The notes beneath the pieces were generated by a model. That model made no database searches. It was given only the letters and a program-made list of their open reading frames with translations, and was not told the DNA's origin. Made by a program: the position numbers and the translations under genes. From an uncultured virus (IMG/VR IMGVR_UViG_3300025736_000017) (taxonomy: Duplodnaviria > Heunggongvirae > Uroviricota > Caudoviricetes): 20,000 nucleotides of DNA. The DNA is taken from IMG/VR virus record IMGVR_UViG_3300025736_000017; one strand, written 5' to 3'. Shown here in pieces: positions 2,760 to 20,000 of the stretch; within the stretch, counting starts at the first letter, position 1, and each line of letters begins with the position of its first letter.

Positions 2760-2900
2760 TCAGTCTTCGCAAGTTCATCTTGAACTACCACACCCTAAAG
2801 GATATGGATTCTCAGGAACAACAGACTAATGTCTGTTTATTTACTGAGCTATCACGGTCGTCCCGACCGCTTAAAATTCTTAACCCTTCATCTAAAATAT
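2760..2900 (-). ncRNA. Predicted TnpB omegaRNA/reRNA (scaffold ends at 2780, guide from 2779 downward)
   Basis: TnpB guide RNAs are known to overlap the tnpB 3' end and the right end of the element. The 5' boundary given here is approximate. Confidence 0.55.
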
Positions 2901-4140
2901 TCAATGAAGCATTTAAGTCTCGATCATGTTTTGTATGACATGTATCACAAGTCCAAACACGATCTGCTAAAGTTAAATCTTTTTTCTTCCAACCACACTT
3001 GTTACAAAGCTTAGAACTAGCAAAGAATCTATCTATCTTAACTACTTCTCTGCCATACCAATCAGCTTTGTAAACTAGCATTTCTACGAATTTACTCCAA
3101 GAAGCATCTGAAATACTTTTAGCTAAACAGTGATTTTTAACCATATTTTTGACACTCAAATCTTCTAAACAAATAACTTGGTTTTCGTTAATTAGTTTAG
3201 TTGATAATTTGTGTAAAAAATCTGATCTCTTATTAGCTATTTTTTGATGTATTTTAAATACTTTTTGTCGTTGTTTAAATTTTCTATTACTTCCGTTTTT
3301 TCTTTGACTTAATTTTCGTTGTGCTTTAACTAATTTACTTTCTAACTTTCTAAGATATTTAGGATTAGATACCTTCTCATTGTCAGAAGTAATAGCAAAA
3401 TCTTTAATCCCTAAATCTATACCTATTTCTTTATCTATCCTAGTAAACGTTTTAATCTCAACTTCACATAAAATGGAAATATAATATTGATTTAAAATAT
3501 TTTTGGTAATTGTGACTGATTTGATTTTTCCTTCTACTTCTCTAGACTTTCTAAATTTAACAAAACCCAACTTAGGCAATTTTATGTGATTATCCTTAAC
3601 TCTAATAGAATTATTTATACTTATTGTTCTATAAGAGTTTTTAGGATTCTTTTTAGATTTATACTTGATAGAGGTTTTTTGTTTATTCTTTAGTTTCCTA
3701 AAGAAATTCTTATAAGCCTTTTCTAGATCTATTCTTGCTTGTTGTAAGGCAATTGAATCGACTTCTTTAAGGAATTCATATTCTTGTTTATATTCTTTCT
3801 CTGTTTTACTTTTAGATTCATCTTTATTCTTGTATTTCTCTTGTTTCTCGTAAAGCATACAATTATAGATTAGTCTTGAGCATCCTATCGTTTTGTTGGG
3901 TTCTAATTTATATTTGTATGCTTTAAATTTCATTTGACGAAGAAAGACCTCTGACAAGCATAGGAAGAAGTCAAAGGTCTTTTGCGAGTTTCCTCACAAT
4001 TAATATTTTAATTATAGTTTCCTATGCTATATCTATACATTCTATGTCGATTTATTAATTCCTTTATAATTTTTAAAAAAAATTATAAGTTGAGATTCAT
4101 CTCCCCCCGTGAACGAGGGAGTCTTCTCTCAACAATGTCA
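2780..4140 (-). mobile_element. Non-autonomous IS200/IS605-family (IS1341-like) element carrying tnpB only
   Basis: The right end reads GAAT-CCATATCCTTTAGGGTGTGG-TAGT-TCAA, which has the IS608-type GAAT guide and TCAA cleavage site. The left end reads TTTAT|TGACATTGTTGAGAG-AAGA followed by the CTCCCTCG-TTCA-CGGGGGGAG hairpin, with the guide at +16..+19. No tnpA lies between the ends. Confidence 0.8.
2812..3933 (-). CDS. tnpB: RNA-guided endonuclease TnpB
   Basis: RuvC motifs GIDLG, EDL and DRDLNAS; Zn finger CNKC/CDTC; KAYKY N-terminus. The likely start is ATG 3933 (MKFKAYKYK). Confidence 0.93.
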   Translation of the reverse strand: MKFKAYKYKLEPNKTIGCSRLIYNCMLYEKQEKYKNKDESKSKTEKEYKQEYEFLKEVDSIALQQARIDLEKAYKNFFRKLKNKQKTSIKYKSKKNPKNSYRTISINNSIRVKDNHIKLPKLGFVKFRKSREVEGKIKSVTITKNILNQYYISILCEVEIKTFTRIDKEIGIDLGIKDFAITSDNEKVSNPKYLRKLESKLVKAQRKLSQRKNGSNRKFKQRQKVFKIHQKIANKRSDFLHKLSTKLINENQVICLEDLSVKNMVKNHCLAKSISDASWSKFVEMLVYKADWYGREVVKIDRFFASSKLCNKCGWKKKDLTLADRVWTCDTCHTKHDRDLNASLNILDEGLRILSGRDDRDSSVNKQTLVCCS

Positions 4141-10200: not shown

Positions 10201-10605
10201 ATGAAAAAATATATACTATTATTGTTACTAATCTGCTCACCAGCACTAGCTGATACAATCCCTCACCAGTCAAAAGAGTTGATAGAGATATATACAAGAT
10301 TAGATCAGCCTATGTATAAAAATCTACAACTTGAACATACATATAAAGTATTTGATGAAATATTCATTCTACCAGATGAATTCTACGGAGAAGCAGAGCT
10401 TTATGATTTGAAATTCTATATAGATATGGATACAACGATTGGAAACGATTTTGACGCCAACTGTTATAGAATATTGTACGAAAACAGAAGACCAATAGTT
10501 GAATATCCGAAAATTATCCCAGAACCTATATCAGCGTCAATCTTCACTTTGACTTTTTTAAGCTTATTTTTGCGAAAAAGAAATGTACAAATTATTCTGG
10601 CGTAA
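10201..10605 (+). CDS. Secreted protein with a PEP-CTERM-like sorting signal
   Basis: Signal peptide MKKYILLLLLICSPALA-D. C-terminal IPEP, then a hydrophobic helix, then RKR. Confidence 0.7.
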   Translation: MKKYILLLLLICSPALADTIPHQSKELIEIYTRLDQPMYKNLQLEHTYKVFDEIFILPDEFYGEAELYDLKFYIDMDTTIGNDFDANCYRILYENRRPIVEYPKIIPEPISASIFTLTFLSLFLRKRNVQIILA

Positions 10606-10780
10606 AATTAGATAAATTATAAATATACATCTTTCTGTGACTGCTTGTATCTACCCCAACCCAATATGTAATCCCCTGAACTTCTTCCTGACCCGTAATA
10701 GCTACAGGAACTTGCTCTCTACCTACAAGATATGTCCCTTTCGATCCAACTTGAATTTGTGCTGTTTTATACCACATCAT
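10592..10780 (-). CDS. Small hypothetical protein with the MMWYKTAQ tag (SH3-like beta pattern)
   Basis: 62 aa; carries the tag; ATGA coupling to the upstream gene. Confidence 0.65.
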   Translation of the reverse strand: MMWYKTAQIQVGSKGTYLVGREQVPVAITGQEEVQGITYWVGVDTSSHRKMYIYNLSNFTPE

Positions 10781-11151
10781 TCAAAAGTGTATATTTCTAT
10801 ATCACTTCCATACTCAGATTGTAAATCTCTTACTAATTGTGGAGAAATTCCATGAAAATGCTGTCTAGTAGAAGGTTTTATGCTTACGCTTTTTTGTCCA
10901 TCTCTATTCTCATATCTGCCATGGTATCGAGTAGGAACACCAGTTCCTCCAGAATCCGTAATGCCAGCATCTAACAATTGTTTTGACAATCTTCCATGAC
11001 TCATAGATCCATTTTCAGTAAACAAACTTCCTTTATCCCAAATCCAAATCTCAGATTCATGATCGACATATTCGTGACCAACGCCATAATATATTTTATC
11101 ATGTTCTTCAGGTCCGATAATATCAGCTTGTGCTGTCTTATACCAGTTCAT
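10777..11151 (-). CDS. Tagged paralog-family protein 6
   Basis: MNWYKTAQ; YYGVGH, IWIW, GRYE, VSI and LQSEYG motifs. Confidence 0.8.
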   Translation of the reverse strand: MNWYKTAQADIIGPEEHDKIYYGVGHEYVDHESEIWIWDKGSLFTENGSMSHGRLSKQLLDAGITDSGGTGVPTRYHGRYENRDGQKSVSIKPSTRQHFHGISPQLVRDLQSEYGSDIEIYTFE

Positions 11152-11152
11152 A

Positions 11153-11527
11153 TTAATACACTCGTATGGTCATTTCTCCGAATCTTTCAGATAAGGCTTT
11201 TATAAGAGGTTTAGGAACAGGTTTAAACATCTTATCAGTAGGTCTAACAAGACTTGCTACATTAGTATTTGGATCATATCTACCTTTATAGTGACCCTCA
11301 GCAAAAGCACCTGGTAACATCTTCTCATGATTAAAAAGCCCACGATAATCCTCTTCTTCCACTACTAATTTACCGTTAATCCAAAACCATAAAACACCTA
11401 AAGCCTTATCAGTATAAGAATTATGACCTATATTTGTATAAGGTACTGGATCTTCTGAATCGTCGTCTATTATTATTTGTGCTGTTTTATACCAATTCAT
11501 GTCATTCCAATCGAAGTACCAGTTCAA
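11153..11527 (-). CDS. Tagged paralog-family protein 5 (double tag)
   Basis: MNWYFDWND-MNWYKTAQ; YTNIGH, LWFW, GRYD, ASL and LSERFG motifs. A second in-frame ATG is at 11500. Confidence 0.8.
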   Translation of the reverse strand: MNWYFDWNDMNWYKTAQIIIDDDSEDPVPYTNIGHNSYTDKALGVLWFWINGKLVVEEEDYRGLFNHEKMLPGAFAEGHYKGRYDPNTNVASLVRPTDKMFKPVPKPLIKALSERFGEMTIRVY

Positions 11528-12042
11528 TATGTCTCTCCAAATTCATTACGAAACTCAATTAGTCTTTTTAAAGACATTGGACCATTCGATCTTTCTCCAC
11601 CAGCAAAATAGGCGATTTCTATAGGAATTATTTTTAGTCCAGCTAAAAAGGCAGCACGAACTCTATGATTCCCTTCATTTATTTTTGCATCTCCATTGTA
11701 CGCTACATTTATAAAAGGCGATTGTTTTAAACCATTTTTTAAAATATCTTCGGCTAATTCTCTAACTCTAGGATTTTGTAAAGTAAGACGTAAATGTTCT
11801 CCCATTATGCCTTCAAGTTTTAACAATTCTTCGACGGGAACCATTACGTTATTAAAACGAGCAGTTACAGCACCTCCTATAAAACCTTTTTTAAAACTTT
11901 CTTCTGCACGAGATTTTTCATATTCTAACCAATTCCCACCAGGATTATCTATATTAGCAGTTTCTGTGCCAAGACGATTTTTTAAATCAGATCCTTTTAA
12001 TCTCCAAAAATCTTCTTCTTCAGATTGTTTATACCAGTTCAA
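11524..12042 (-). CDS. ParB/sulfiredoxin-like domain protein with the xNWYKQSE tag
   Basis: ParB-N pattern LAEDILKNGLKQSP...INEGNHRVRAAFLAG...IP. TTG start with an AGGAG RBS. Confidence 0.75.
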   Translation of the reverse strand: MNWYKQSEEEDFWRLKGSDLKNRLGTETANIDNPGGNWLEYEKSRAEESFKKGFIGGAVTARFNNVMVPVEELLKLEGIMGEHLRLTLQNPRVRELAEDILKNGLKQSPFINVAYNGDAKINEGNHRVRAAFLAGLKIIPIEIAYFAGGERSNGPMSLKRLIEFRNEFGETY

Positions 12043-12501: not shown

Positions 12502-13206
12502 TCACACGTCAACCAACTTATACATCTTCATGTCTCCCCGAGAATACCAATACTGTCCCAAACCCCTTGTACTCACAGGATAACCAACAGGACACGAAGC
12601 ATTACCACGTATACTTAACCAAGTCTCATGAATAAACCTATTACTCGATCTCAATGGCTTCCTTAATGTCCTAATATAAGAAGCTTTAGCCCACCAAAAA
12701 TTACCAGAATAATGTCCGTTCCTTATCATTATCCCACATGTATTATTACCCTCATCCAACTTAACTACACACTCTCGCCAACTCCTTCCAAGAACCGCCT
12801 CTGCCATCACACGTCGCCAAATGTCACTCTTAAAGTTCTGTCTGTATGAGGCTCCCTTAGTATGACAATAATAAACATAAAATTCATCATCAGTAGCCTT
12901 ACATGTTTCCCATAATCTATTCAATGTTGGATACTCATACTGACGGAGATCAAAGCCAGCAGAAAATCTTTTTATCTTTTTGCGTTTTTTATTTAAAGAT
13001 CCGTATTTCGGCATCTCTGCCTTATGCTCAGGTCCAACCGTTACCTGTAAAAGCTGATTTGTATTACTCAATAAACCGTTACCATCTATGTAATAAACCA
13101 ATTCCTCAACTATTTCTTCCCAATGATTCATCGTAGCAATATGCATAAATCCTAAAATCTTAGGTTTACCCTTTTTAATGAGTTTAGACTTATGAACTAT
13201 TCTCAT
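12502..13206 (-). CDS. Putative glycosyltransferase-related protein (HTKG / SGNFWW family)
   Basis: Motifs YEYPTL, YCHTKGAS, WR..M and HYSGNFWWAKASYI, recalled from uncharacterised proteins of large viruses and phages near glycosylation genes. It lacks the tag. Confidence 0.6.
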   Translation of the reverse strand: MRIVHKSKLIKKGKPKILGFMHIATMNHWEEIVEELVYYIDGNGLLSNTNQLLQVTVGPEHKAEMPKYGSLNKKRKKIKRFSAGFDLRQYEYPTLNRLWETCKATDDEFYVYYCHTKGASYRQNFKSDIWRRVMAEAVLGRSWRECVVKLDEGNNTCGIMIRNGHYSGNFWWAKASYIRTLRKPLRSSNRFIHETWLSIRGNASCPVGYPVSTRGLGQYWYSRGDMKMYKLVDV

Positions 13207-13595
13207 ATGATTTGAACCATTGATTGACCCTTCATAGTGTCTTCTGATGCATATATACTAGCACCAGGGAACTCACTCATCAATCTATCAATCAGTCTAT
13301 TAGGAATATCTTTAGAAGTTAATGACATCTTACGAGATAACCAAGGCATTTGAAGGCTTACGTTGTTAGTGAAAGGATCATATCTGCCTTTGTATACTTT
13401 TGCTGAGACTTCCCAAAAGTCTCTATGACCTCCAGCATGAGGTTCAATTTCTTGTGTTTCAAAGTTTTCGCCTGATATGTTTGCTACCCAGAGAACTACT
13501 TTTTCTTTCTTTGCTTCTTCGGATAGATCCCATGGAGAATAATGCCCTATATCCGTATAATGTTTTAAAACCTCTTGTGCTAACTTGTACCACAT
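13203..13595 (-). CDS. Tagged paralog-family protein 4
   Basis: MWYKLAQ; YTDIGH, VLWV, GRYDP, VSL and IPNRLIDRLMSEFPG motifs. Confidence 0.85.
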   Translation of the reverse strand: MWYKLAQEVLKHYTDIGHYSPWDLSEEAKKEKVVLWVANISGENFETQEIEPHAGGHRDFWEVSAKVYKGRYDPFTNNVSLQMPWLSRKMSLTSKDIPNRLIDRLMSEFPGASIYASEDTMKGQSMVQII

Positions 13596-13625
13596 AAAAC
13601 CTTTTCCTTTTTTGCGTTTTTTTAG

Positions 13626-14075
13626 TTAAGCTACTGGTGTCGGAGGACTTCCATACTCAAATGCATACATAGATGAACCTGGGAACGCTCTCTCAAGCTG
13701 TTTAATTAATCTGTTAGGTATTTCATCGGAATTAACTATTCTAGTAAGATTATTAGGATCAACTGGCATGTTGATACTTACCATATTCTTGATAGGATCA
13801 TATCTTCCCTGATACATTGTTGCATTCCCAATATCGTTACCATACTCGTCAGTTGCACTAAAATCGTCATCATGAGTAGCTTCCTCATATAAATCAAATT
13901 CTTTTACTTCAAATTTACTACCTGTTATGTCAGATTGCCAAAGAGCAACCTTCCTATCGTCTTTGTCCATTTCTTCAGTATATTCACCACCATGTCCTCC
14001 ATAATAGTGACCTACGTCCGTATAGTATTCAACAGGACGATCTTTAACAGCTTGTGCCTTTTTATACCAATTCAT
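13626..14075 (-). CDS. Tagged paralog-family protein 3
   Basis: MNWYKKAQ; YTDVGH, ALWQ, GRYDP, VSI and IPNRLIKQLERAFPG motifs. Confidence 0.85.
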   Translation of the reverse strand: MNWYKKAQAVKDRPVEYYTDVGHYYGGHGGEYTEEMDKDDRKVALWQSDITGSKFEVKEFDLYEEATHDDDFSATDEYGNDIGNATMYQGRYDPIKNMVSINMPVDPNNLTRIVNSDEIPNRLIKQLERAFPGSSMYAFEYGSPPTPVA

Positions 14076-14473
14076 TACATTATCCTTATTGGAGTTCCAC
14101 CATTACCGAACCCATACATACCTGCTCCAGAGAACTCACTTATGAGTCTGTCCATTAAATTATTAGGTAATTCATTTGGATCTATTGTTTCGCCTGGTAT
14201 GCGAGTATCTAGGGGAAGAGCTATACTCACCGTATTCTGATCGTAATCATATCTGCCCCAAATACTGTTTTTCCTGTTTTGTTGTCCATGACCAAATGCT
14301 TGTGAGTGATTTTTAATTTCGTCATTCACTTCTTGAGTACGGAAATTATTACCAGATCTATCAGATATCCAAAGAACTATTCTTTTATCACTGTAATCAT
14401 CGTAATCATCATAATGACCTACATCAAAATAAGTTCCAGGTGCTTCTTCTTGGGATTTCTTATACCAGTTCAT
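14075..14473 (-). CDS. Tagged paralog-family protein 2
   Basis: MNWYKKSQ; YFDVGH, VLWI, GRYD, VSI and LPNNLMDRLISEFSG motifs. Confidence 0.85.
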   Translation of the reverse strand: MNWYKKSQEEAPGTYFDVGHYDDYDDYSDKRIVLWISDRSGNNFRTQEVNDEIKNHSQAFGHGQQNRKNSIWGRYDYDQNTVSIALPLDTRIPGETIDPNELPNNLMDRLISEFSGAGMYGFGNGGTPIRIM

Positions 14474-14868
14474 ATTATCTGAGTCATCTCTGTCCCGCCC
14501 ATGAAATTAAACGCATATATACTTGATCCTGGAAATTCGCTTACTAATCTACTCACTAGTCTATTAGGTATTTTGTCTACATCTATCGATTTATATTGGA
14601 TGTTAGGGTCAAGGGGTAGTGTTATACTTACGGCATTTTTAAACGGATCATGTCTACCATAAAAGTTTTGTGTAGGAGTTAGATCAAAAGCTCTTTCATG
14701 TATAAAATCACTGCCTGGAACCGACAGTTTCATTCTGAAATTACCACCAGTTAAATCTGAAATCCAAAGAGTAATAAATTTTCCTTTTGTGTCTTCAGTG
14801 GTATTCCTGTGACCAATATCTAAATATTCTTCAATTTCTGTTTGCTGTGATTTTTTATACCAATTCAT
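14470..14868 (-). CDS. Tagged paralog-family protein 1
   Basis: The start is inferred at ATG 14868 (MNWYKKSQ) rather than 14937. YLDIGH, TLWI, GRHDP, VSI and IPNRLVSRLVSEFPG motifs. Confidence 0.85.
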   Translation of the reverse strand: MNWYKKSQQTEIEEYLDIGHRNTTEDTKGKFITLWISDLTGGNFRMKLSVPGSDFIHERAFDLTPTQNFYGRHDPFKNAVSITLPLDPNIQYKSIDVDKIPNRLVSRLVSEFPGSSIYAFNFMGGTEMTQII

Positions 14869-15378
14869 TGTACTTATTAATACGGATATTATTGAGACTT
14901 CCCTTTTCATTTTTTGCGAATTATTCTTAAATTTCAAGATTTTTTGCTGGGAATATTTTGAGGGGAGGTATCCGCTATCCAGAGAATTTAATGTTTTTTA
15001 AACGAGGGGGAATGAGGGATTGAGAGAAAATTCTTCGTATAACTCTGTCTGGGAGGTATATGCTAGTATCTGTGAAAAAACGTCAGATGAAGCTACCGAG
15101 GGGATGGGGGTAGGCCGGGGGACACTTTTTACACACAAAAGAGAACGCCAGCGGGTCAACCTTTTCAGGTGCCAGCGGGCATTCTCTATACGTCTCATTA
15201 TATAATCATGTACTTAAGAATATATGTGGGGTAAGGTAGCTAAGTCATCCTCTGTCCTTTCATTAATACTAGTTTAATTCATTCTCTCTAAATTAATGTG
15301 TCTTAGTCTATCGTCTCATGTTGCTATCCCTTTCATCTTTATTGTGATTGTTTTCTTAATCGGGGAAAGCGGTGAAAT

Positions 15379-15921
15379 TTATGCGTATGTTTTTGTTTGT
15401 GTATCGTAGAATCGAATTGATTTTTTACATATTCCGCATCGCCAATGGTTAGCTTTCAATACGTTTTTCCCTTTGCGATGCTTTGTATAGACTTTTCCGC
15501 AATCGCAAACAGCCTTATATCGTCCTTCGGGCATCTTGGCGGTTTTGGTATAGGTATTACCGTTACAGCCTATTTCAATAGCTTTCTTACGCCATACAGC
15601 ATCATGTCCATGTACAGGTCCGACGAGGAAATGTGCGATTTCATGTAGTATTGTTTCGCGTATTTCGTTTTCATCGTTCAGATCGACAAGGTATCGAGAC
15701 AGTTTGATACCTACGCATATTGCATTTTTGAGTCTTTCTTTTCTGTTTGGGCGTCTATATCCTAAGATATCATTGACTATATCTAAGGTTGGATTTGCTT
15801 TTGCTTTGAAGCTACATACGCCGAGTTGTCTTTTACCTCCGCTAATAATGAGAGGTACATCATTTGCTCCATGTTCGTCCATTAGTTTTCTTGCGAGTTG
15901 TTTTGCATCTGATAGTTTCAT
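15379..15921 (-). CDS. SprT-like zinc metalloprotease
   Basis: HEIAH (HExxH), HGHDAVWR, and a C-terminal CDC...CGIC Zn ribbon. Confidence 0.88.
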   Translation of the reverse strand: MKLSDAKQLARKLMDEHGANDVPLIISGGKRQLGVCSFKAKANPTLDIVNDILGYRRPNRKERLKNAICVGIKLSRYLVDLNDENEIRETILHEIAHFLVGPVHGHDAVWRKKAIEIGCNGNTYTKTAKMPEGRYKAVCDCGKVYTKHRKGKNVLKANHWRCGICKKSIRFYDTQTKTYA

Positions 15922-15987
15922 TGTATTACCCTTTCGAGTATATTATGATTCTTTTCTTTTTCGGGAAAAACTCTTTCAGAGCGGATT

Positions 15988-16353
15988 TTATTCAATTTTT
16001 TGCGGAAGATCTCTCGCTTTTTCCAAGACATGTTCCAAGAAGTCATTATCTGCTAAGAAGTTTTCTGGTACGTCGATTGAATCTCCATCGTTCCCGGTTC
16101 CGAAGAGGAACATATCGCCAACGATTACATCTGCGGGCATCAATCCGATTTCGAGTTTTCGGCAAAGAAACGTAGCCATAAAATTGACTTCTTTACCTTT
16201 GAGTTTTCCTTCTTCGTCAATATAGGCATGAACTTTTGGGGTAAGCTGTAGAGCTTCGATATATCCTCCGACTGCTGATTGTATGCTATCGAGACCTGGT
16301 TCTATTTCGATTGTTTCGATTGTTCCGTCTGTTCTGATTGCGATTGTTTTCAT
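15988..16353 (-). CDS. DUF3846-like protein
   Basis: LDSIQSAVGGYIE, IDEEGKLKG..VN..AT and IVGD motifs. Confidence 0.8.
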   Translation of the reverse strand: MKTIAIRTDGTIETIEIEPGLDSIQSAVGGYIEALQLTPKVHAYIDEEGKLKGKEVNFMATFLCRKLEIGLMPADVIVGDMFLFGTGNDGDSIDVPENFLADNDFLEHVLEKARDLPQKIE

Positions 16354-16401
16354 TGTATTACCCTTTCGAGTATATTATGTTTGCATTTTTAATCGGGAAA
16401 G

Positions 16402-16548
16402 CTAGTTTTTTTTATTGCTTTTGTACCATAATCTTGCTAGTTCTCTTACTCTTGTACATCCATTTCTATCATTTGTTGACTGGTGTTTCCTTACGAAGTC
16501 GAATACATTTTGATTTTCTTTTGCGAGTTGTCTTAGAATTGTCGTCAT
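16402..16548 (-). CDS. Small hypothetical protein (48 aa)
   Basis: MTTILRQLAKENQNVFDFVRKHQSTNDRNGCTRVRELARLWYKSNKKN*. It sits between two promoter repeats and is not in the ORF track. Confidence 0.7.
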   Translation of the reverse strand: MTTILRQLAKENQNVFDFVRKHQSTNDRNGCTRVRELARLWYKSNKKN

Positions 16549-16590
16549 GTTATACCCTTTCGAGTATATTATGATTAGTTAATTAATCGG

Positions 16591-16700
16591 GGGAACGGCG
16601 GGAATGGGCTTCAATGTCTTTTGGACTCCACCCATTCCCAACTTTTAATTTAGCAGCGTTGCCAGAGCGACCCGGCGGTATTCTAAACTAAAATGTTCCC
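16591..16700 (-). ncRNA. Candidate structured small RNA (three-way junction)
   Basis: A promoter repeat with no ATG at the usual position. The GGGAAC/GTTCCC closing stem encloses two long hairpins. Confidence 0.7.
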
Positions 16701-16740
16701 TTTTCGAGTATATTATGATTGTATTCTCTTTTCGGGAAAA

Positions 16741-16968
16741 TTATGAAACGGGTTTTAAGTCAAGCTCTTCAATATTTGACAGATACCCATTAAATAGCCA
16801 AGGGACATTATTCGTTCCAGCTTCATCCATAGCTATTTCTTCGCTATCTTTACAGTCTGTACAAAGTACCCAAGCCTGATCTGAGTTGAAAAGTGAACTA
16901 TGGTTTCTAACCATACCGGGTTTGAATGGAATTCCGCAAGAAACGCAATGATTATCTATGTTTTTCAT
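16741..16968 (-). CDS. Small Zn-finger-like protein
   Basis: CVSC...CTDC; it has its own promoter repeat. Confidence 0.75.
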   Translation of the reverse strand: MKNIDNHCVSCGIPFKPGMVRNHSSLFNSDQAWVLCTDCKDSEEIAMDEAGTNNVPWLFNGYLSNIEELDLKPVS

Positions 16969-17036
16969 TGTTATACCCTTTCAACTATATTGTAGTTGTT
17001 TTATTTTTCGGGATTTTTAAACTTTGGAGCGGAAAA

Positions 17037-17429
17037 TTAGTCCATTCTGGAATTTGCGTAAGCTTTGATATTTCCTTGATCTCTAAGGATTTTAGCGAAT
17101 GCATTTGCATAAGCCATTTTTTTAGTCATTGATTGACCGAAATCTCTGACCCATACGCATAATCCTTTTGGGTAATCTTTGCTTGCTAAGCCATTCTTTT
17201 TTGTCCAGCGGCCCCAGGGCGTATTTCCTGCGAAGTGTACCCAGGCGAAGCCGCAGACCCCTCCATCGACCTTGTAGATTTCCTTATTCGGGTCGATATC
17301 GTTACCTAACGGAGTTGTTGGTGATCCGACATACATTGGTTTTGGTATAATATGGTTTCCGGCATCCATACCGTTTTTATGGGCTTTGTCGAATAGTTCT
17401 TGAAATCGCTTGTTTTGCGTTGCGTTCAT
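17037..17429 (-). CDS. Conserved phage hypothetical protein (CGFAWV family)
   Basis: CGFAWV, QSMTKKMAYANAFA and terminal SRMD motifs, recalled from phage hypothetical proteins. It has its own promoter repeat. Confidence 0.8.
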   Translation of the reverse strand: MNATQNKRFQELFDKAHKNGMDAGNHIIPKPMYVGSPTTPLGNDIDPNKEIYKVDGGVCGFAWVHFAGNTPWGRWTKKNGLASKDYPKGLCVWVRDFGQSMTKKMAYANAFAKILRDQGNIKAYANSRMD

Positions 17430-17451
17430 TGTATGCTACCTTTCAACTATA

Positions 17452-17658
17452 TTATGATTTGTTAATTAATCGGGAAAAGTGATTTTCAGCGAGAGCGATG
17501 CCAGCGTTAGTAATTGCAATGCCTACGGAGCAATTTTCATCATGTCCATCCTTCACATTTCCATCGCATACCTGGCAACAATGACATGAGAGATTATCAT
17601 CCCAAACCCATTCTATGTCTTTTATCGCTTTTAGCAATTCTCTGGTAATTATTTCCAT
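17452..17658 (-). CDS. Small Zn-binding protein
   Basis: CQVC...GH...C. Its 3' end overlaps the next promoter repeat. Confidence 0.75.
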   Translation of the reverse strand: MEIITRELLKAIKDIEWVWDDNLSCHCCQVCDGNVKDGHDENCSVGIAITNAGIALAENHFSRLINKS

Positions 17659-17724
17659 TGTTATACCCTTTCAACTATATTATGATTTGTTTTATTTTCG
17701 GGGGAAAGTTTAAACTTTGAAGCG

Positions 17725-17887
17725 AAAAAAAGATGCCAGCAGGATAATTGTCTCCATACTGTCATCTTTGGGTAATGTCCTAGCTACAAGCTAAGACTAA
17801 CAATTCTATGGTTACGGTTAGAGAAAGAAGAGACTTTCTTACGATTCGGCTGAAAACTTCTGTCGTCAATCCCATTTGCTTGAATCC
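17725..17887 (-). ncRNA. Candidate small RNA or 31-aa peptide transcript with its own terminator
   Basis: Promoter repeat at ~17886-17921, hairpin at 17777-17797, and a long hairpin plus U7 at 17725-17769. An alternative ORF runs 17780-17875. Confidence 0.45.
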
Positions 17888-17925
17888 TTTCAAGTATATT
17901 GTGATTGTTTAATTAATCGGGTGAA

Positions 17926-18087
17926 TTAATATTCGCCTTTTGTTTTCCAAGCTCTACGTTTTGTCTTTGAGCATTTTCGTTTTTTACTGGTATCTGCTAC
18001 TCTGGGCCGGAATCTGGCTTCTGATAGTACCGCAGCGAGTAAGTCTTTTGGTACGTTATGTTTTTTGATTTTCTTATTCTTTGCCAT
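17926..18087 (-). CDS. Small basic protein, ArfA-like (53 aa)
   Basis: MAKNKKIKKHNVPKDLLAAVLSEARFRPRVADTSKKRKCSKTKRRAWKTKGEY*. It has its own promoter repeat and is not in the ORF track. Confidence 0.7.
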   Translation of the reverse strand: MAKNKKIKKHNVPKDLLAAVLSEARFRPRVADTSKKRKCSKTKRRAWKTKGEY

Positions 18088-18135
18088 ATTATACCCTTTC
18101 AAGTATATTATGGCTTTATCCTTTTTCGGGAATTG

Positions 18136-18318
18136 TTAAAATTCGATATCGGAGGCGTCGATACTGCTATTGTAATGGTTGAGTATTTCTTCTTTTTTCC
18201 CAACTGTTACCATAAAATTTTCTGATATTCCATGAGTATCGCCTTCTATGTCAACCCATAAAGTAGCTTTATATTTTTCTAGCAACTTTTTGAGTTCTCT
18301 CTTAAAATCTTCTAACAT
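18136..18318 (-). CDS. Small hypothetical protein
   Basis: The start is reassigned to ATG 18318 (MLEDFKREL) because the annotated 18333 start lies inside the promoter repeat. Confidence 0.75.
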   Translation of the reverse strand: MLEDFKRELKKLLEKYKATLWVDIEGDTHGISENFMVTVGKKEEILNHYNSSIDASDIEF

Positions 18319-18363
18319 GTTATACCCTTTCAACTCTATTGCGAATGATTTGTTAATCGGGTT

Positions 18364-18594
18364 TTATTTACTCTGAACAAGTTTTTTTGCTTTTTTGTCG
18401 AATTTGTTTTTGCCATAAGTTACAGCGTCAGTCTGTTTTTGGTAGGTTTGTCCGAAGAGTTGAACGATTCCGGTTTTTTCTCCGCCAAGCCGGAAGCCTG
18501 TTTTCTGTGAGCCAGTAACTCTCAGGGCGAATGTTCCGGACAGTATACCGTTTCGGGTTGAGCGATGATTGTGTTTGCTATTGCTGATTTTCAT
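18364..18594 (-). CDS. Small basic hypothetical protein
   Basis: 76 aa, with a promoter repeat and AAAGG RBS upstream. Confidence 0.75.
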   Translation of the reverse strand: MKISNSKHNHRSTRNGILSGTFALRVTGSQKTGFRLGGEKTGIVQLFGQTYQKQTDAVTYGKNKFDKKAKKLVQSK

Positions 18595-18656
18595 TGTTTT
18601 GCCTTTCTAAAGTAGGTTTCTTTCAACTCTATTGCGAATGATTTGTTTTTCGGGAT

Positions 18657-18797
18657 TTAATCCTTAAAAAACGCATAGTACAAATTGATAAGGTCAACTG
18701 TATACAGTTTGCACAATGATTCCATTGAACCCGTTAAACCTTCGATTCGTTCTAATATCCAACTTCGAGCCATATATTCTTGTTCTTTTGTTCCCAT
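18657..18797 (-). CDS. Small hypothetical protein (46 aa)
   Basis: MGTKEQEYMARSWILERIEGLTGSMESLCKLYTVDLINLYYAFFKD*. It fills the space between two repeats and is not in the ORF track. Confidence 0.7.
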   Translation of the reverse strand: MGTKEQEYMARSWILERIEGLTGSMESLCKLYTVDLINLYYAFFKD

Positions 18798-18880
18798 TGT
18801 ATTACCCTTTCAACTATATTATGATTCTTTTCTTTTTCGGGAAAAATTTCTACGAAACGGAAAAATTAAGAGTAGCTAAG

Positions 18881-18904
18881 AAAAAAGCCATATTTCTATG
18901 GCTT
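18881..18904 (-). terminator. Rho-independent terminator
   Basis: AAGCCATA-GAAA-TATGGCTT hairpin running into a T6 tract on the minus strand. Confidence 0.7.
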
Positions 18905-18931
18905 CAATCTTTCGGCAAGCAAAACAATGAT

Positions 18932-19546
18932 TTAGTTAACGATTTGATATCGTTGTTTGTTGATTGTCATATGCGTTATATCGTCAAGATTCCATACTTG
19001 GAATTTTAGCGGAGTGTCAAGCCCTTGATTCGCGTAGTCGCTACGCTTGGCGAGATAAGGCTTTACATCTTCGGTCTCGATTTTCGTACCGTTGGCGGTA
19101 TGGTATCGAACGTTATTCGATGCGTTAAGCATGAAACGAAGATAACATTGTCGCGGATCGCTTTTTTTGCGACATAGCGGCGTCAATGTTCCATCGGCTC
19201 GGATAACAGGCTCATGCCAAGATTCGCCTTTTTTGAAATCATCGGCGGTTTTTCCTTCTTTTGCGAGTCTACGCAATACGCCTTTGTCATAATGAAAATT
19301 GATCATTCCGTTTGCGTCTTGCGTCTTGAAACAACCGCCCCAATACGGGTTTGCTTCTTTTGTTTCGCGGTTTTTCTTTACCATTTTTCCGCTTTTGCTC
19401 ATTGTCGAGCAATGAGTAAAGCTGATAATCGTTGCTCCGCGTTCTTGCATAAGCAATTCGACCATTTGCGTTGTCGTGATCAGCTTGACGGTTTTGACTT
19501 CTACTGTCTTTTTCGCTTCGGGTTTTGTTTTGACTGTTACATTCAT
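18932..19546 (-). CDS. Hypothetical protein
   Basis: The likely start is ATG 19546 (MNVTVKTK) with an AAAGG RBS. The annotated 19579 start lies inside the promoter repeat. Confidence 0.8.
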   Translation of the reverse strand: MNVTVKTKPEAKKTVEVKTVKLITTTQMVELLMQERGATIISFTHCSTMSKSGKMVKKNRETKEANPYWGGCFKTQDANGMINFHYDKGVLRRLAKEGKTADDFKKGESWHEPVIRADGTLTPLCRKKSDPRQCYLRFMLNASNNVRYHTANGTKIETEDVKPYLAKRSDYANQGLDTPLKFQVWNLDDITHMTINKQRYQIVN

Positions 19547-19610
19547 TGTTTTTGCCTTTCGTTGTTTGCTTGCCTTCAACTCTATTGTAACAATAAAAAA
19601 GATCGGGAAT

Positions 19611-19793
19611 TTAGCGGGCAGCGGCGAACATCGCTATTTCGTGGATCATCTCATTATTTGCCCCAATACGATTTACTATATGATCCGTCCCGTTCTCGCA
19701 AAACGGTATAGTTTGACGCAAAGACTCAGTTTCTTCTTTAATCGCTCGTATCAGCATTTTACCCAAACAATCTATTTCATTTTTTACTGCCAT
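19611..19793 (-). CDS. Small hypothetical protein
   Basis: 60 aa; the ATG is at the canonical position of a promoter repeat. Confidence 0.7.
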   Translation of the reverse strand: MAVKNEIDCLGKMLIRAIKEETESLRQTIPFCENGTDHIVNRIGANNEMIHEIAMFAAAR

Positions 19794-19828
19794 TGTTATA
19801 CCCTTTCAAGTATATTATGATTGTTTTT

Positions 19829-20000
19829 TTAATCGGGATCGCAGGCTCCGCATTTTGTACATTTTCCGACACGCCCGCTCGTAATTCTACGATTTTCGTT
19901 GATATCAACTATTCCGTTATGACATCCTGGAAAATCGCAAGGTACATAAGCTTCTATTCCTAATCCATGCGATTGTCGTCCTGCTATGTCTCTAAGAATT
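19829..20000 (-). CDS. 3' part of a Cys-rich hypothetical protein
   Basis: Open frame ...ILRDIAGRQSHGLGIEAYVPCDFPGCHNG...KCTKCGACDPD*. Its stop lies inside the next promoter repeat. Confidence 0.6.
   Translation of the reverse strand, partial: ILRDIAGRQSHGLGIEAYVPCDFPGCHNGIVDINENRRITSGRVGKCTKCGACDPD

Follow-up and report, generated by a model that had tools for sequence, protein, structure and literature searches.

Phage RNA mimics are known from just a few cases, the RNA anti-CRISPRs being one type. Pseudo-ToxI of phiTE, which consists of tandem repeats, is another (PMC10286901, accessible text), a phage tRNA is reported to neutralise PARIS (PMC11464382, accessible text), and the available portion of PMC9697503 describes RNAC and RNAD of T4 as late small RNAs of unknown function. 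In the OLE RNA, a bacterial chromosomal non-coding RNA of about 600 nt, a kink-turn is bound by the bacterial protein YbxF/OapC (PMC9723947). The RNA analysed here was predicted in the DNA of an uncultured virus (Caudoviricetes; IMG/VR record IMGVR_UViG_3300025736_000017), of which a stretch of 20,000 nucleotides, hereafter called the window, was studied. Like the mimics, it would be a phage-made small RNA and is proposed to occupy a host protein; with RNAC and RNAD, as far as their available description goes, it can be grouped as a phage small RNA without known role, and with OLE it shares a kink-turn as a putative protein-binding site. Unlike the mimics it has neither repeats nor a pseudoknot, a cloverleaf or a CRISPR repeat match, and unlike the much longer OLE RNA it measures 110 nt and gave no Rfam OLE match.

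The surroundings of the RNA resemble the PeSL cassettes of T4-type phages which, according to the accessible parts of PMC2839356 and PMC4122927, consist of dense promoter repeats before small unknown ORFs and differ in cassette order among relatives. The array in the window shares both properties but has CCCGAW in its consensus instead of a sigma-70 -35 box, no stem-loop inside the repeat and RNAs in some of its slots; the words ‘noncoding’ and ‘small RNA’ are absent from the available text of PMC2839356. No published account of the RNA or of the array was found in the literature searched. PMC10690425, which catalogues candidate RNAs of viruses, does not mention kink-turns in its accessible text, and 6 of its supplementary files contained no match.

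The promoter-cassette array

The array of promoter-like repeats and small ORFs extends from 15329 to 19850 on the minus strand and runs on beyond the end of the window. The repeat has the consensus CCCGAW, a 17-nt spacer, TAKAST and then GAAAGG (333 sites), and a regular expression found 15 copies on the minus strand of the window and none on the plus strand. An ATG follows within 40 nt after 14 of the 15 copies, the sole exception being the copy at 16736-16701, for which the preliminary description had already noted that the usual position holds no ATG. The repeat at 15363 opens a frame of 3 codons only, so that 13 of the 15 repeats are coding. In coding cassettes, GAAAGG precedes the ATG by 7-8 nt, as a ribosome-binding site would. 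Between 15000 and 20000, 3 terminator-like sites were counted compared to 5.3 expected, and a stem-loop terminator for each repeat was not found. The place of the sigma-70 -35 box is taken by CCCGAW, the promoter pattern had no match in the viral collection, and in 185,579 species genomes it gave 6 single matches, which are probably due to chance; this combination suggests that the repeat is read by a phage-specific sigma factor or polymerase, and we infer that it is a strong promoter.

Salt-lake metagenomes carry the source DNA: 24 runs were listed, 15 of them are possible sources and none is recorded as RNA. In metagenome contigs the promoter pattern was found in at least 237 stretches, about 125 loci being short flanks only. 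The order of the cassettes varies among related arrays, and in run X24 a contig of depth 3 skips the DUF3846 cassette (15916-16347), passing precisely from one repeat to the next, which may reflect a natural deletion or an assembly artefact. Searching by regular expression revealed 344 distinct cassettes among the matches listed, 299 of them with an ATG frame of at least 25 codons; the remaining 45 include truncated cassettes, alternative starts and chance matches. A matrix search gave 428 distinct cassettes among the matches listed, with 39 that look non-coding, and the cassette with the kink-turn RNA is a single one of these 428 and hence rare.

The RNA cassette lies between an upstream cassette with an ORF of 75 aa (16741-16968, minus) and a downstream cassette with an ORF of 48 aa (16402-16548, minus), both without a family. 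These are followed by a DUF3846 gene (15988-16353, minus) and a SprT-like gene (15379-15921, minus); the other ORFs of the array are unnamed. A Pfam match was obtained for 7 of the 136 cassette protein representatives scanned (168 clusters, the rest being scanned separately or left out). Gene products recognised in the window and its relatives comprise SprT-like, DUF3846, DUF932, Tad6, RNA ligase, RlaP, PARP, ADP-ribosylglycohydrolase and gp30.3-family proteins. Five of these were seen in or near related arrays: Tad6 (L006:11106-11705, plus), PARP (L205:12884-14248, minus), a T4-type RNA ligase (L028:5469-6668, plus), RlaP (L054:6270-7166, minus) and a gp30.3-family protein (L013:424-882, plus). 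Contigs of up to 338 kb carry homologs of one window protein, and neither capsid nor terminase was found among the proteins scanned. Judged by its gene content, the genome is probably that of a large phage. The prepilin-type and PEP-CTERM-associated domains encoded in L006 suggest a Gram-negative host, for which a planctomycete would be a guess.

Elsewhere in the window, at least nine small ORFs share an MNWYK-like N-terminal motif, several of them being paralogs (145-525, 10592-12042 and 13203-14937, minus); four of the five scanned had no Pfam or PHROG match and the fifth is weakly ParB-like. An intact IS200/IS605 TnpB gene, scoring above the NCBIfam cut-off, is located at 2812-3957 (minus) with no TnpA seen beside it, and all TnpB matches have less than 60% identity.

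Predicted fold of the RNA

The promoter-like repeat of the RNA cassette covers 16701-16740 on the minus strand, with CCCGAA at 16736-16731 and TATACT at 16712-16707. It is followed by the predicted three-way-junction RNA (16591-16700, minus), which is 110 nt long (115 nt with 16705 as start). The next promoter-like repeat (16556-16591, minus) adjoins the 3' end, and the final C of the RNA (16591) is at the same time the first C of this repeat. All elements of the preliminary description lie on the minus strand where it had placed them, and the prediction equals the three-way junction it had drawn. The fold has an energy of -42.1 kcal/mol (z -3.9), and 3 of 2000 dinucleotide shuffles were as good; the plus strand reached -33.3 kcal/mol (z -1.6). 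Of the 37 pairs of the fold, 5 are G-U. The closing stem P1 is formed by 16695-16700 and 16591-16596 (minus; pair probability 0.98-1.0). Arm 1 (16643-16693, minus) has an 11-bp stem, a 6x7 internal loop, a 6-bp stem and a 4-nt loop, and arm 2 (16599-16640, minus) an 11-bp stem ending in the kink-turn, a 3-bp C helix and a 5-nt loop. Pair probabilities of the stems are mostly 0.9-1.0, those of the terminal arm pairs 0.5-0.7. Folded by itself, arm 2 was equalled by 0 of 1000 shuffles and arm 1 by 32 of 1000. The other 154 window tiles of 110 nt contain 6 with z <= -3 (15-25 shuffles each) and none that reaches -40 kcal/mol. The GC content of the RNA is 50% compared to 38.5% for the array.

The preliminary description had placed the transcription start at GGGAAC, 7 nt after TATACT. 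The position of this motif was correct, G16700 being the 7th base after TATACT, but a start at about G16705 is more likely, because both the GAAAGG motif of the coding cassettes and, in the class A RNA of L015 (see below), 4 of the 5 pairs that form the first hairpin would be cut if transcription began 7 nt past the TATAST hexamer; this hairpin uses both A's of GAA. Frames inside the RNA have 6-20 codons, begin in stems and are not preceded by a ribosome-binding motif; a small peptide as product was therefore rejected.

A terminator-like site was not found 3' of the RNA and no U-tract follows the closing stem, so that a discrete RNA would have to be processed. The missing terminator would also fit a cis element, i.e. 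a 5' leader of a read-through mRNA for the 48-aa ORF, the DUF3846 and the SprT-like protein, which stabilises the message, marks it for processing or attenuates transcription coming from upstream cassettes in the manner of the PeSL stem-loops, which lower read-through in T4-type repeats according to the accessible text of PMC2839356. Indeed, the fold is predicted to be the same in transcripts starting at 16705, at 16700 or one cassette upstream and would thus persist within longer transcripts. However, the downstream ORF owns a repeat, homologs of the 48-aa ORF (L002, L036, L166) stand behind other cassettes without the RNA element upstream, the stem lacks a U-tract, and a kink-turn with two long arms would exceed the needs of a stabiliser or terminator, which makes a role in cis unlikely.

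Since 74 of the 110 nt are paired, little is left for base-pairing in trans. As a repressor of mRNAs from host or phage, the small RNA could pair through the internal loop of arm 1, whose two unpaired strands measure 6 and 7 nt, or after unfolding, but the unpaired stretches are short, in 205 loci blastn listed no antisense match with E <= 1 (among the matches listed) and one weak antisense match was found in the window (E 0.87). We consider this mode of action very unlikely.

The predicted kink-turn in arm 2 and comparison with known RNA classes

In arm 2, the preliminary description had noted an internal loop (GGA/ATTGAA). Its location was right, but instead of a plain loop it reads as a standard kink-turn. 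Kink-turns are defined by a 3-nt bulge that has G.A and A.G pairs to its 3' side, between one canonical and one non-canonical helix (PMC5061560, accessible text), and the 3x6 loop of arm 2 agrees with this sequence definition. The predicted kink-turn (16610-16629, minus; descriptor match) comprises G16629 (3n), G16628 (2n), A16627 (1n), G16612 (1b), A16611 (2b) and A16610 (3b), the C helix of 16626-16624 with 16618-16616 and the bulge 16615-16613; its third pair is A.G. Among 3000 shuffled versions of the RNA, 1 matched the descriptor, in a test that was made after the motif had been noticed, and 400,000 bases of shuffled window sequence contained 2 matches. As a control, it found 24 of 24 fetched SAM-I kink-turns and none in E. 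coli rRNA. A flanking helix of more than 4 bp was present in 0 of 95 distinct viral core matches (among the matches listed), compared to 11 bp here. The accessible text of PMC4914095 describes kink-turns with A.G as third pair as the only class to take the N3 form when folding in metal ions, and gives A.G as typical of SAM-I, Kt-46 and Kt-78, the latter two being ribosomal; in bacterial Kt-7 the third pair is U.G in 92% and A.G in 0.29%. The kink-turn of arm 2 thus has its class in common with Kt-46 and Kt-78, and we infer that it would fold in Mg2+ and bend the arm sharply. Most kink-turns serve in protein binding and tertiary contacts (PMC5061560 and PMC4914095, accessible text).

Arm 2 matches P2 of the SAM-I riboswitch (RF00162) in layout and flanks: both have a 3-nt bulge, G.A/A.G pairs, A.G as third pair, a 3-bp C helix and a loop of about 5 nt, and the flanking triplets equal those of common SAM-I sequences. 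A likeness of this degree was reached by 6 of 5000 shuffles and 1 of 2336 phage tiles, with a profile of 19 of the 24 sequences parsed from 30 loci. P3-like words in arm 1 are weak (147/5000 shuffles). These similarities speak for a ligand-binding RNA, an aptamer or sponge such as a rearranged SAM-I fold for SAM or a signalling nucleotide. However, the elements that contact SAM, P1 and J1/2, are missing (out of 5000 shuffles, 3823 and 1537, respectively, score equally), the element order is reversed, forcing P3 costs 7.6 kcal/mol, the 5-nt loop of arm 2 has no pseudoknot partner and there was no Rfam SAM match. The RNA is therefore not a SAM-I riboswitch, and ligand binding in general is very unlikely. 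In contrast to SAM-I, it has no SAM pocket, no pseudoknot and no leader role with an expression platform, and it has an 11-bp flanking helix where that of SAM-I is short and a three-way instead of a four-way junction.

Scanning with the Rfam 15 covariance models, including those of 5S, SRP, 6S, YrlA, small ribozymes, riboswitches, CRISPR repeats and OLE, gave two matches in the window at E <= 5, neither of them at the RNA, in line with the earlier view that the class is undescribed. That the RNA is not a tRNA cloverleaf was likewise confirmed: ARAGORN found 0 tRNA or tmRNA genes, and no cloverleaf or Rfam match for these was seen. A mimic of rRNA was rejected because likeness to E. coli 16S, 23S and 5S rRNA was at chance level (11-91 of 100 shuffles as good; multi-segment test 49/60 shuffles, L1 stalk 206/500), although the rRNA of the host may differ. 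Antitoxins of the pseudo-ToxI type have a pseudoknot fold. The RNA has no internal repeat family and no loop-loop pseudoknot, its unpaired regions pairing over 3 nt at most, and the RNA antitoxin named among the possibilities in the preliminary description found no support in its type III form; the same applies to an anti-CRISPR repeat RNA, since no Rfam CRISPR repeat matched. Kissing loops as in packaging RNA were rejected, the two apical loops not being complementary. Archaeal H/ACA guides carry a kink-turn above a stem of 9-10 bp, a two-sided guide pocket and ACA 3' of the basal stem; here, stem and kink-turn fit, but the closing stem is not followed by ACA and arm 1 replaces the pocket. 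CsrB-like sponges present several GGA motifs in hairpin loops, whereas the RNA has a single unpaired GGA that lies within the kink-turn.

Homologs and sister non-coding cassettes

Among the matches listed from the 205 loci, only two copies of the RNA were found (L114 and L140), both identical, and contigs of 4 DNA runs contained no variant letters. Since only identical copies and no divergent homolog were present among the matches listed, no covariation was obtained. A model built from the single RNA sequence (R1) found nothing further in 183 of the 205 loci (the other loci overlap contigs already given; among the matches listed), nothing in 80 of 80 viral loci around homologs of the neighbour protein, nothing in the 80 of 120 kink-turn-core loci scanned (among the matches listed) and nothing in 151 Verrucomicrobiota genomes. 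The R1 match in L254/L255 (E 0.81) was rejected as antisense of a coding gene with a fold z of -0.07, the one in L243 (E 0.0066, 40 nt) as a GC-rich hairpin without kink-turn. Blastn against phages gave two records, one 28-nt match and no homolog; against plasmids, no homolog was found. Patterns for the promoter, arm 1 and arm 2 had 0 matches in viral contigs, and the neighbour-protein search in viral contigs led to no homolog of the RNA.

A sequence that is found once in 428 cassettes and has no divergent homolog among the matches listed might be a non-functional passenger between two repeats, either a piece captured from some structured RNA of host or phage or a fold that arose by chance. 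The 6 of 154 other window tiles with z <= -3 point in the same direction, as does the 6-bp closing stem, which borrows consensus letters of the repeat at both its ends; end-to-end pairing of at least 6 bp occurs in 4 of 254 cassettes including this one. Furthermore, 16 nt of arm 2 (16625-16640, minus) are identical, in the same sense, to a coding stretch of a 378-aa gene (1147-1162, minus). A match of 16 nt was reached by 9 of 5000 shuffles, and the corresponding peptide word is present in 1 of 120 homologs, one that is 100% identical to the window protein; the identity is possibly due to chance. Against a passenger, the fold spans the slot from repeat to repeat, the arms, the closing stem and the kink-turn are all intact, and a source RNA was not found in Rfam, phages or plasmids. 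We regard a passenger as improbable.

The central claim of the preliminary description, a promoter-type cassette that holds a non-coding fold, held up, and non-coding cassettes recur in related arrays. Class A (L036:17745-17912, minus; L015:903-1058, plus; L023:8509-8693, plus; L201:4357-4512, minus; L103:615-798, plus; five full sequences) is built of three hairpins with an irregular helix that does not vary, loops rich in pyrimidines and a strong hairpin at the 3' end; compensatory changes affect 2 of 39 pairs (5 related sequences, no phylogenetic control). The loops presumably resemble the anti-Shine-Dalgarno sequence. For class A, scanning of the loci covered gave no Rfam match, resemblance to the 16S decoding helix did not reach significance, and an rRNA mimic was rejected on whole-length and two-segment tests with E. 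coli rRNA, which may not be that of the host. Class B (L036:15150-15335, minus; L036:14065-14245, minus; L104:112-295, plus) consists of three tRNA-like RNAs of about 185 nt, in which an insert of about 70 nt replaces the anticodon loop and the variable arm is long. They were missed by ARAGORN, the Rfam tRNA score of L104 was weak (28.6), and 9 of 49 pairs are compensatory (3 related sequences, no phylogenetic control). Class C (L020:1468-1647, L043:10072-10260 and L095:785-974, all plus) comprises three RNAs in which two long hairpins precede a tRNA-like domain whose anticodon arm is non-standard and to which ARAGORN assigns no anticodon in L043 and L095; 4 of 35 pairs are compensatory (3 related sequences, no phylogenetic control). 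The class C RNAs are candidate tRNA decoys. As far as predicted structures can tell, these cassettes show that structured RNAs in ATG-less slots are a habit of this array family.

The last repeat of the array is also non-coding, with its frame of 3 codons (region 15130-15363, minus). About 200 nt behind it are ~70-74% conserved in L002, L007, L035 and L036 and end in a GC-rich hairpin and a T run; this region may be another RNA or the conserved end of the array.

Proposed role of the kink-turn RNA

In sum, the RNA is probably a new phage small RNA, and it is likely that it functions as a structured RNA of some kind. Our preferred, still tentative reading is that of a true phage small RNA whose action consists in protein binding, as decoy or scaffold. 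The preliminary description had offered a protein sponge among its guesses, and it is this protein-binding branch that the kink-turn in arm 2 favours. A decoy or scaffold is further indicated by an RNA that is mostly paired and folds by itself, by a promoter of the type used for small unknown proteins and by the non-decoding tRNA-like RNAs alongside. In such a mechanism, a small RNA gene would fill one slot of a shuffled promoter-cassette array. Transcription would begin at about G16705 from the repeat acting as strong promoter and, as no terminator follows, the 3' end would be formed by trimming back to the closing stem. With the kink-turn folded in Mg2+ and arm 2 bent, the RNA would act in trans via protein binding, most likely as decoy for a host RNA-binding protein, which could be a kink-turn binder of the L7Ae/YbxF type, a ribosomal protein or an RNA-sensing defence protein. 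Alternatively, it would serve as scaffold for a phage protein.

More speculative, and doubtful at present, is the idea that the array as a whole provides large aquatic phages with a swappable library of RNA decoys besides small proteins. The library would contain anticodon-less tRNA look-alikes, an RNA with anti-Shine-Dalgarno-like pyrimidine loops and the kink-turn RNA, the latter titrating either a protein of the host that binds kink-turns or a defence system that senses RNA.

The kink-turn RNA in its swappable promoter cassette and at least three other classes of non-coding cassettes in relatives suggest that a layer of phage RNA effectors has been overlooked, and looking for copies of a phage's repeated promoter that lack an ATG offers a simple way to find more of them. 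The small size of the RNA permits probing and its use as bait in pull-downs without a phage culture. If the library of RNA decoys were true, it would be a new class of phage RNAs for counter-defence or host takeover.
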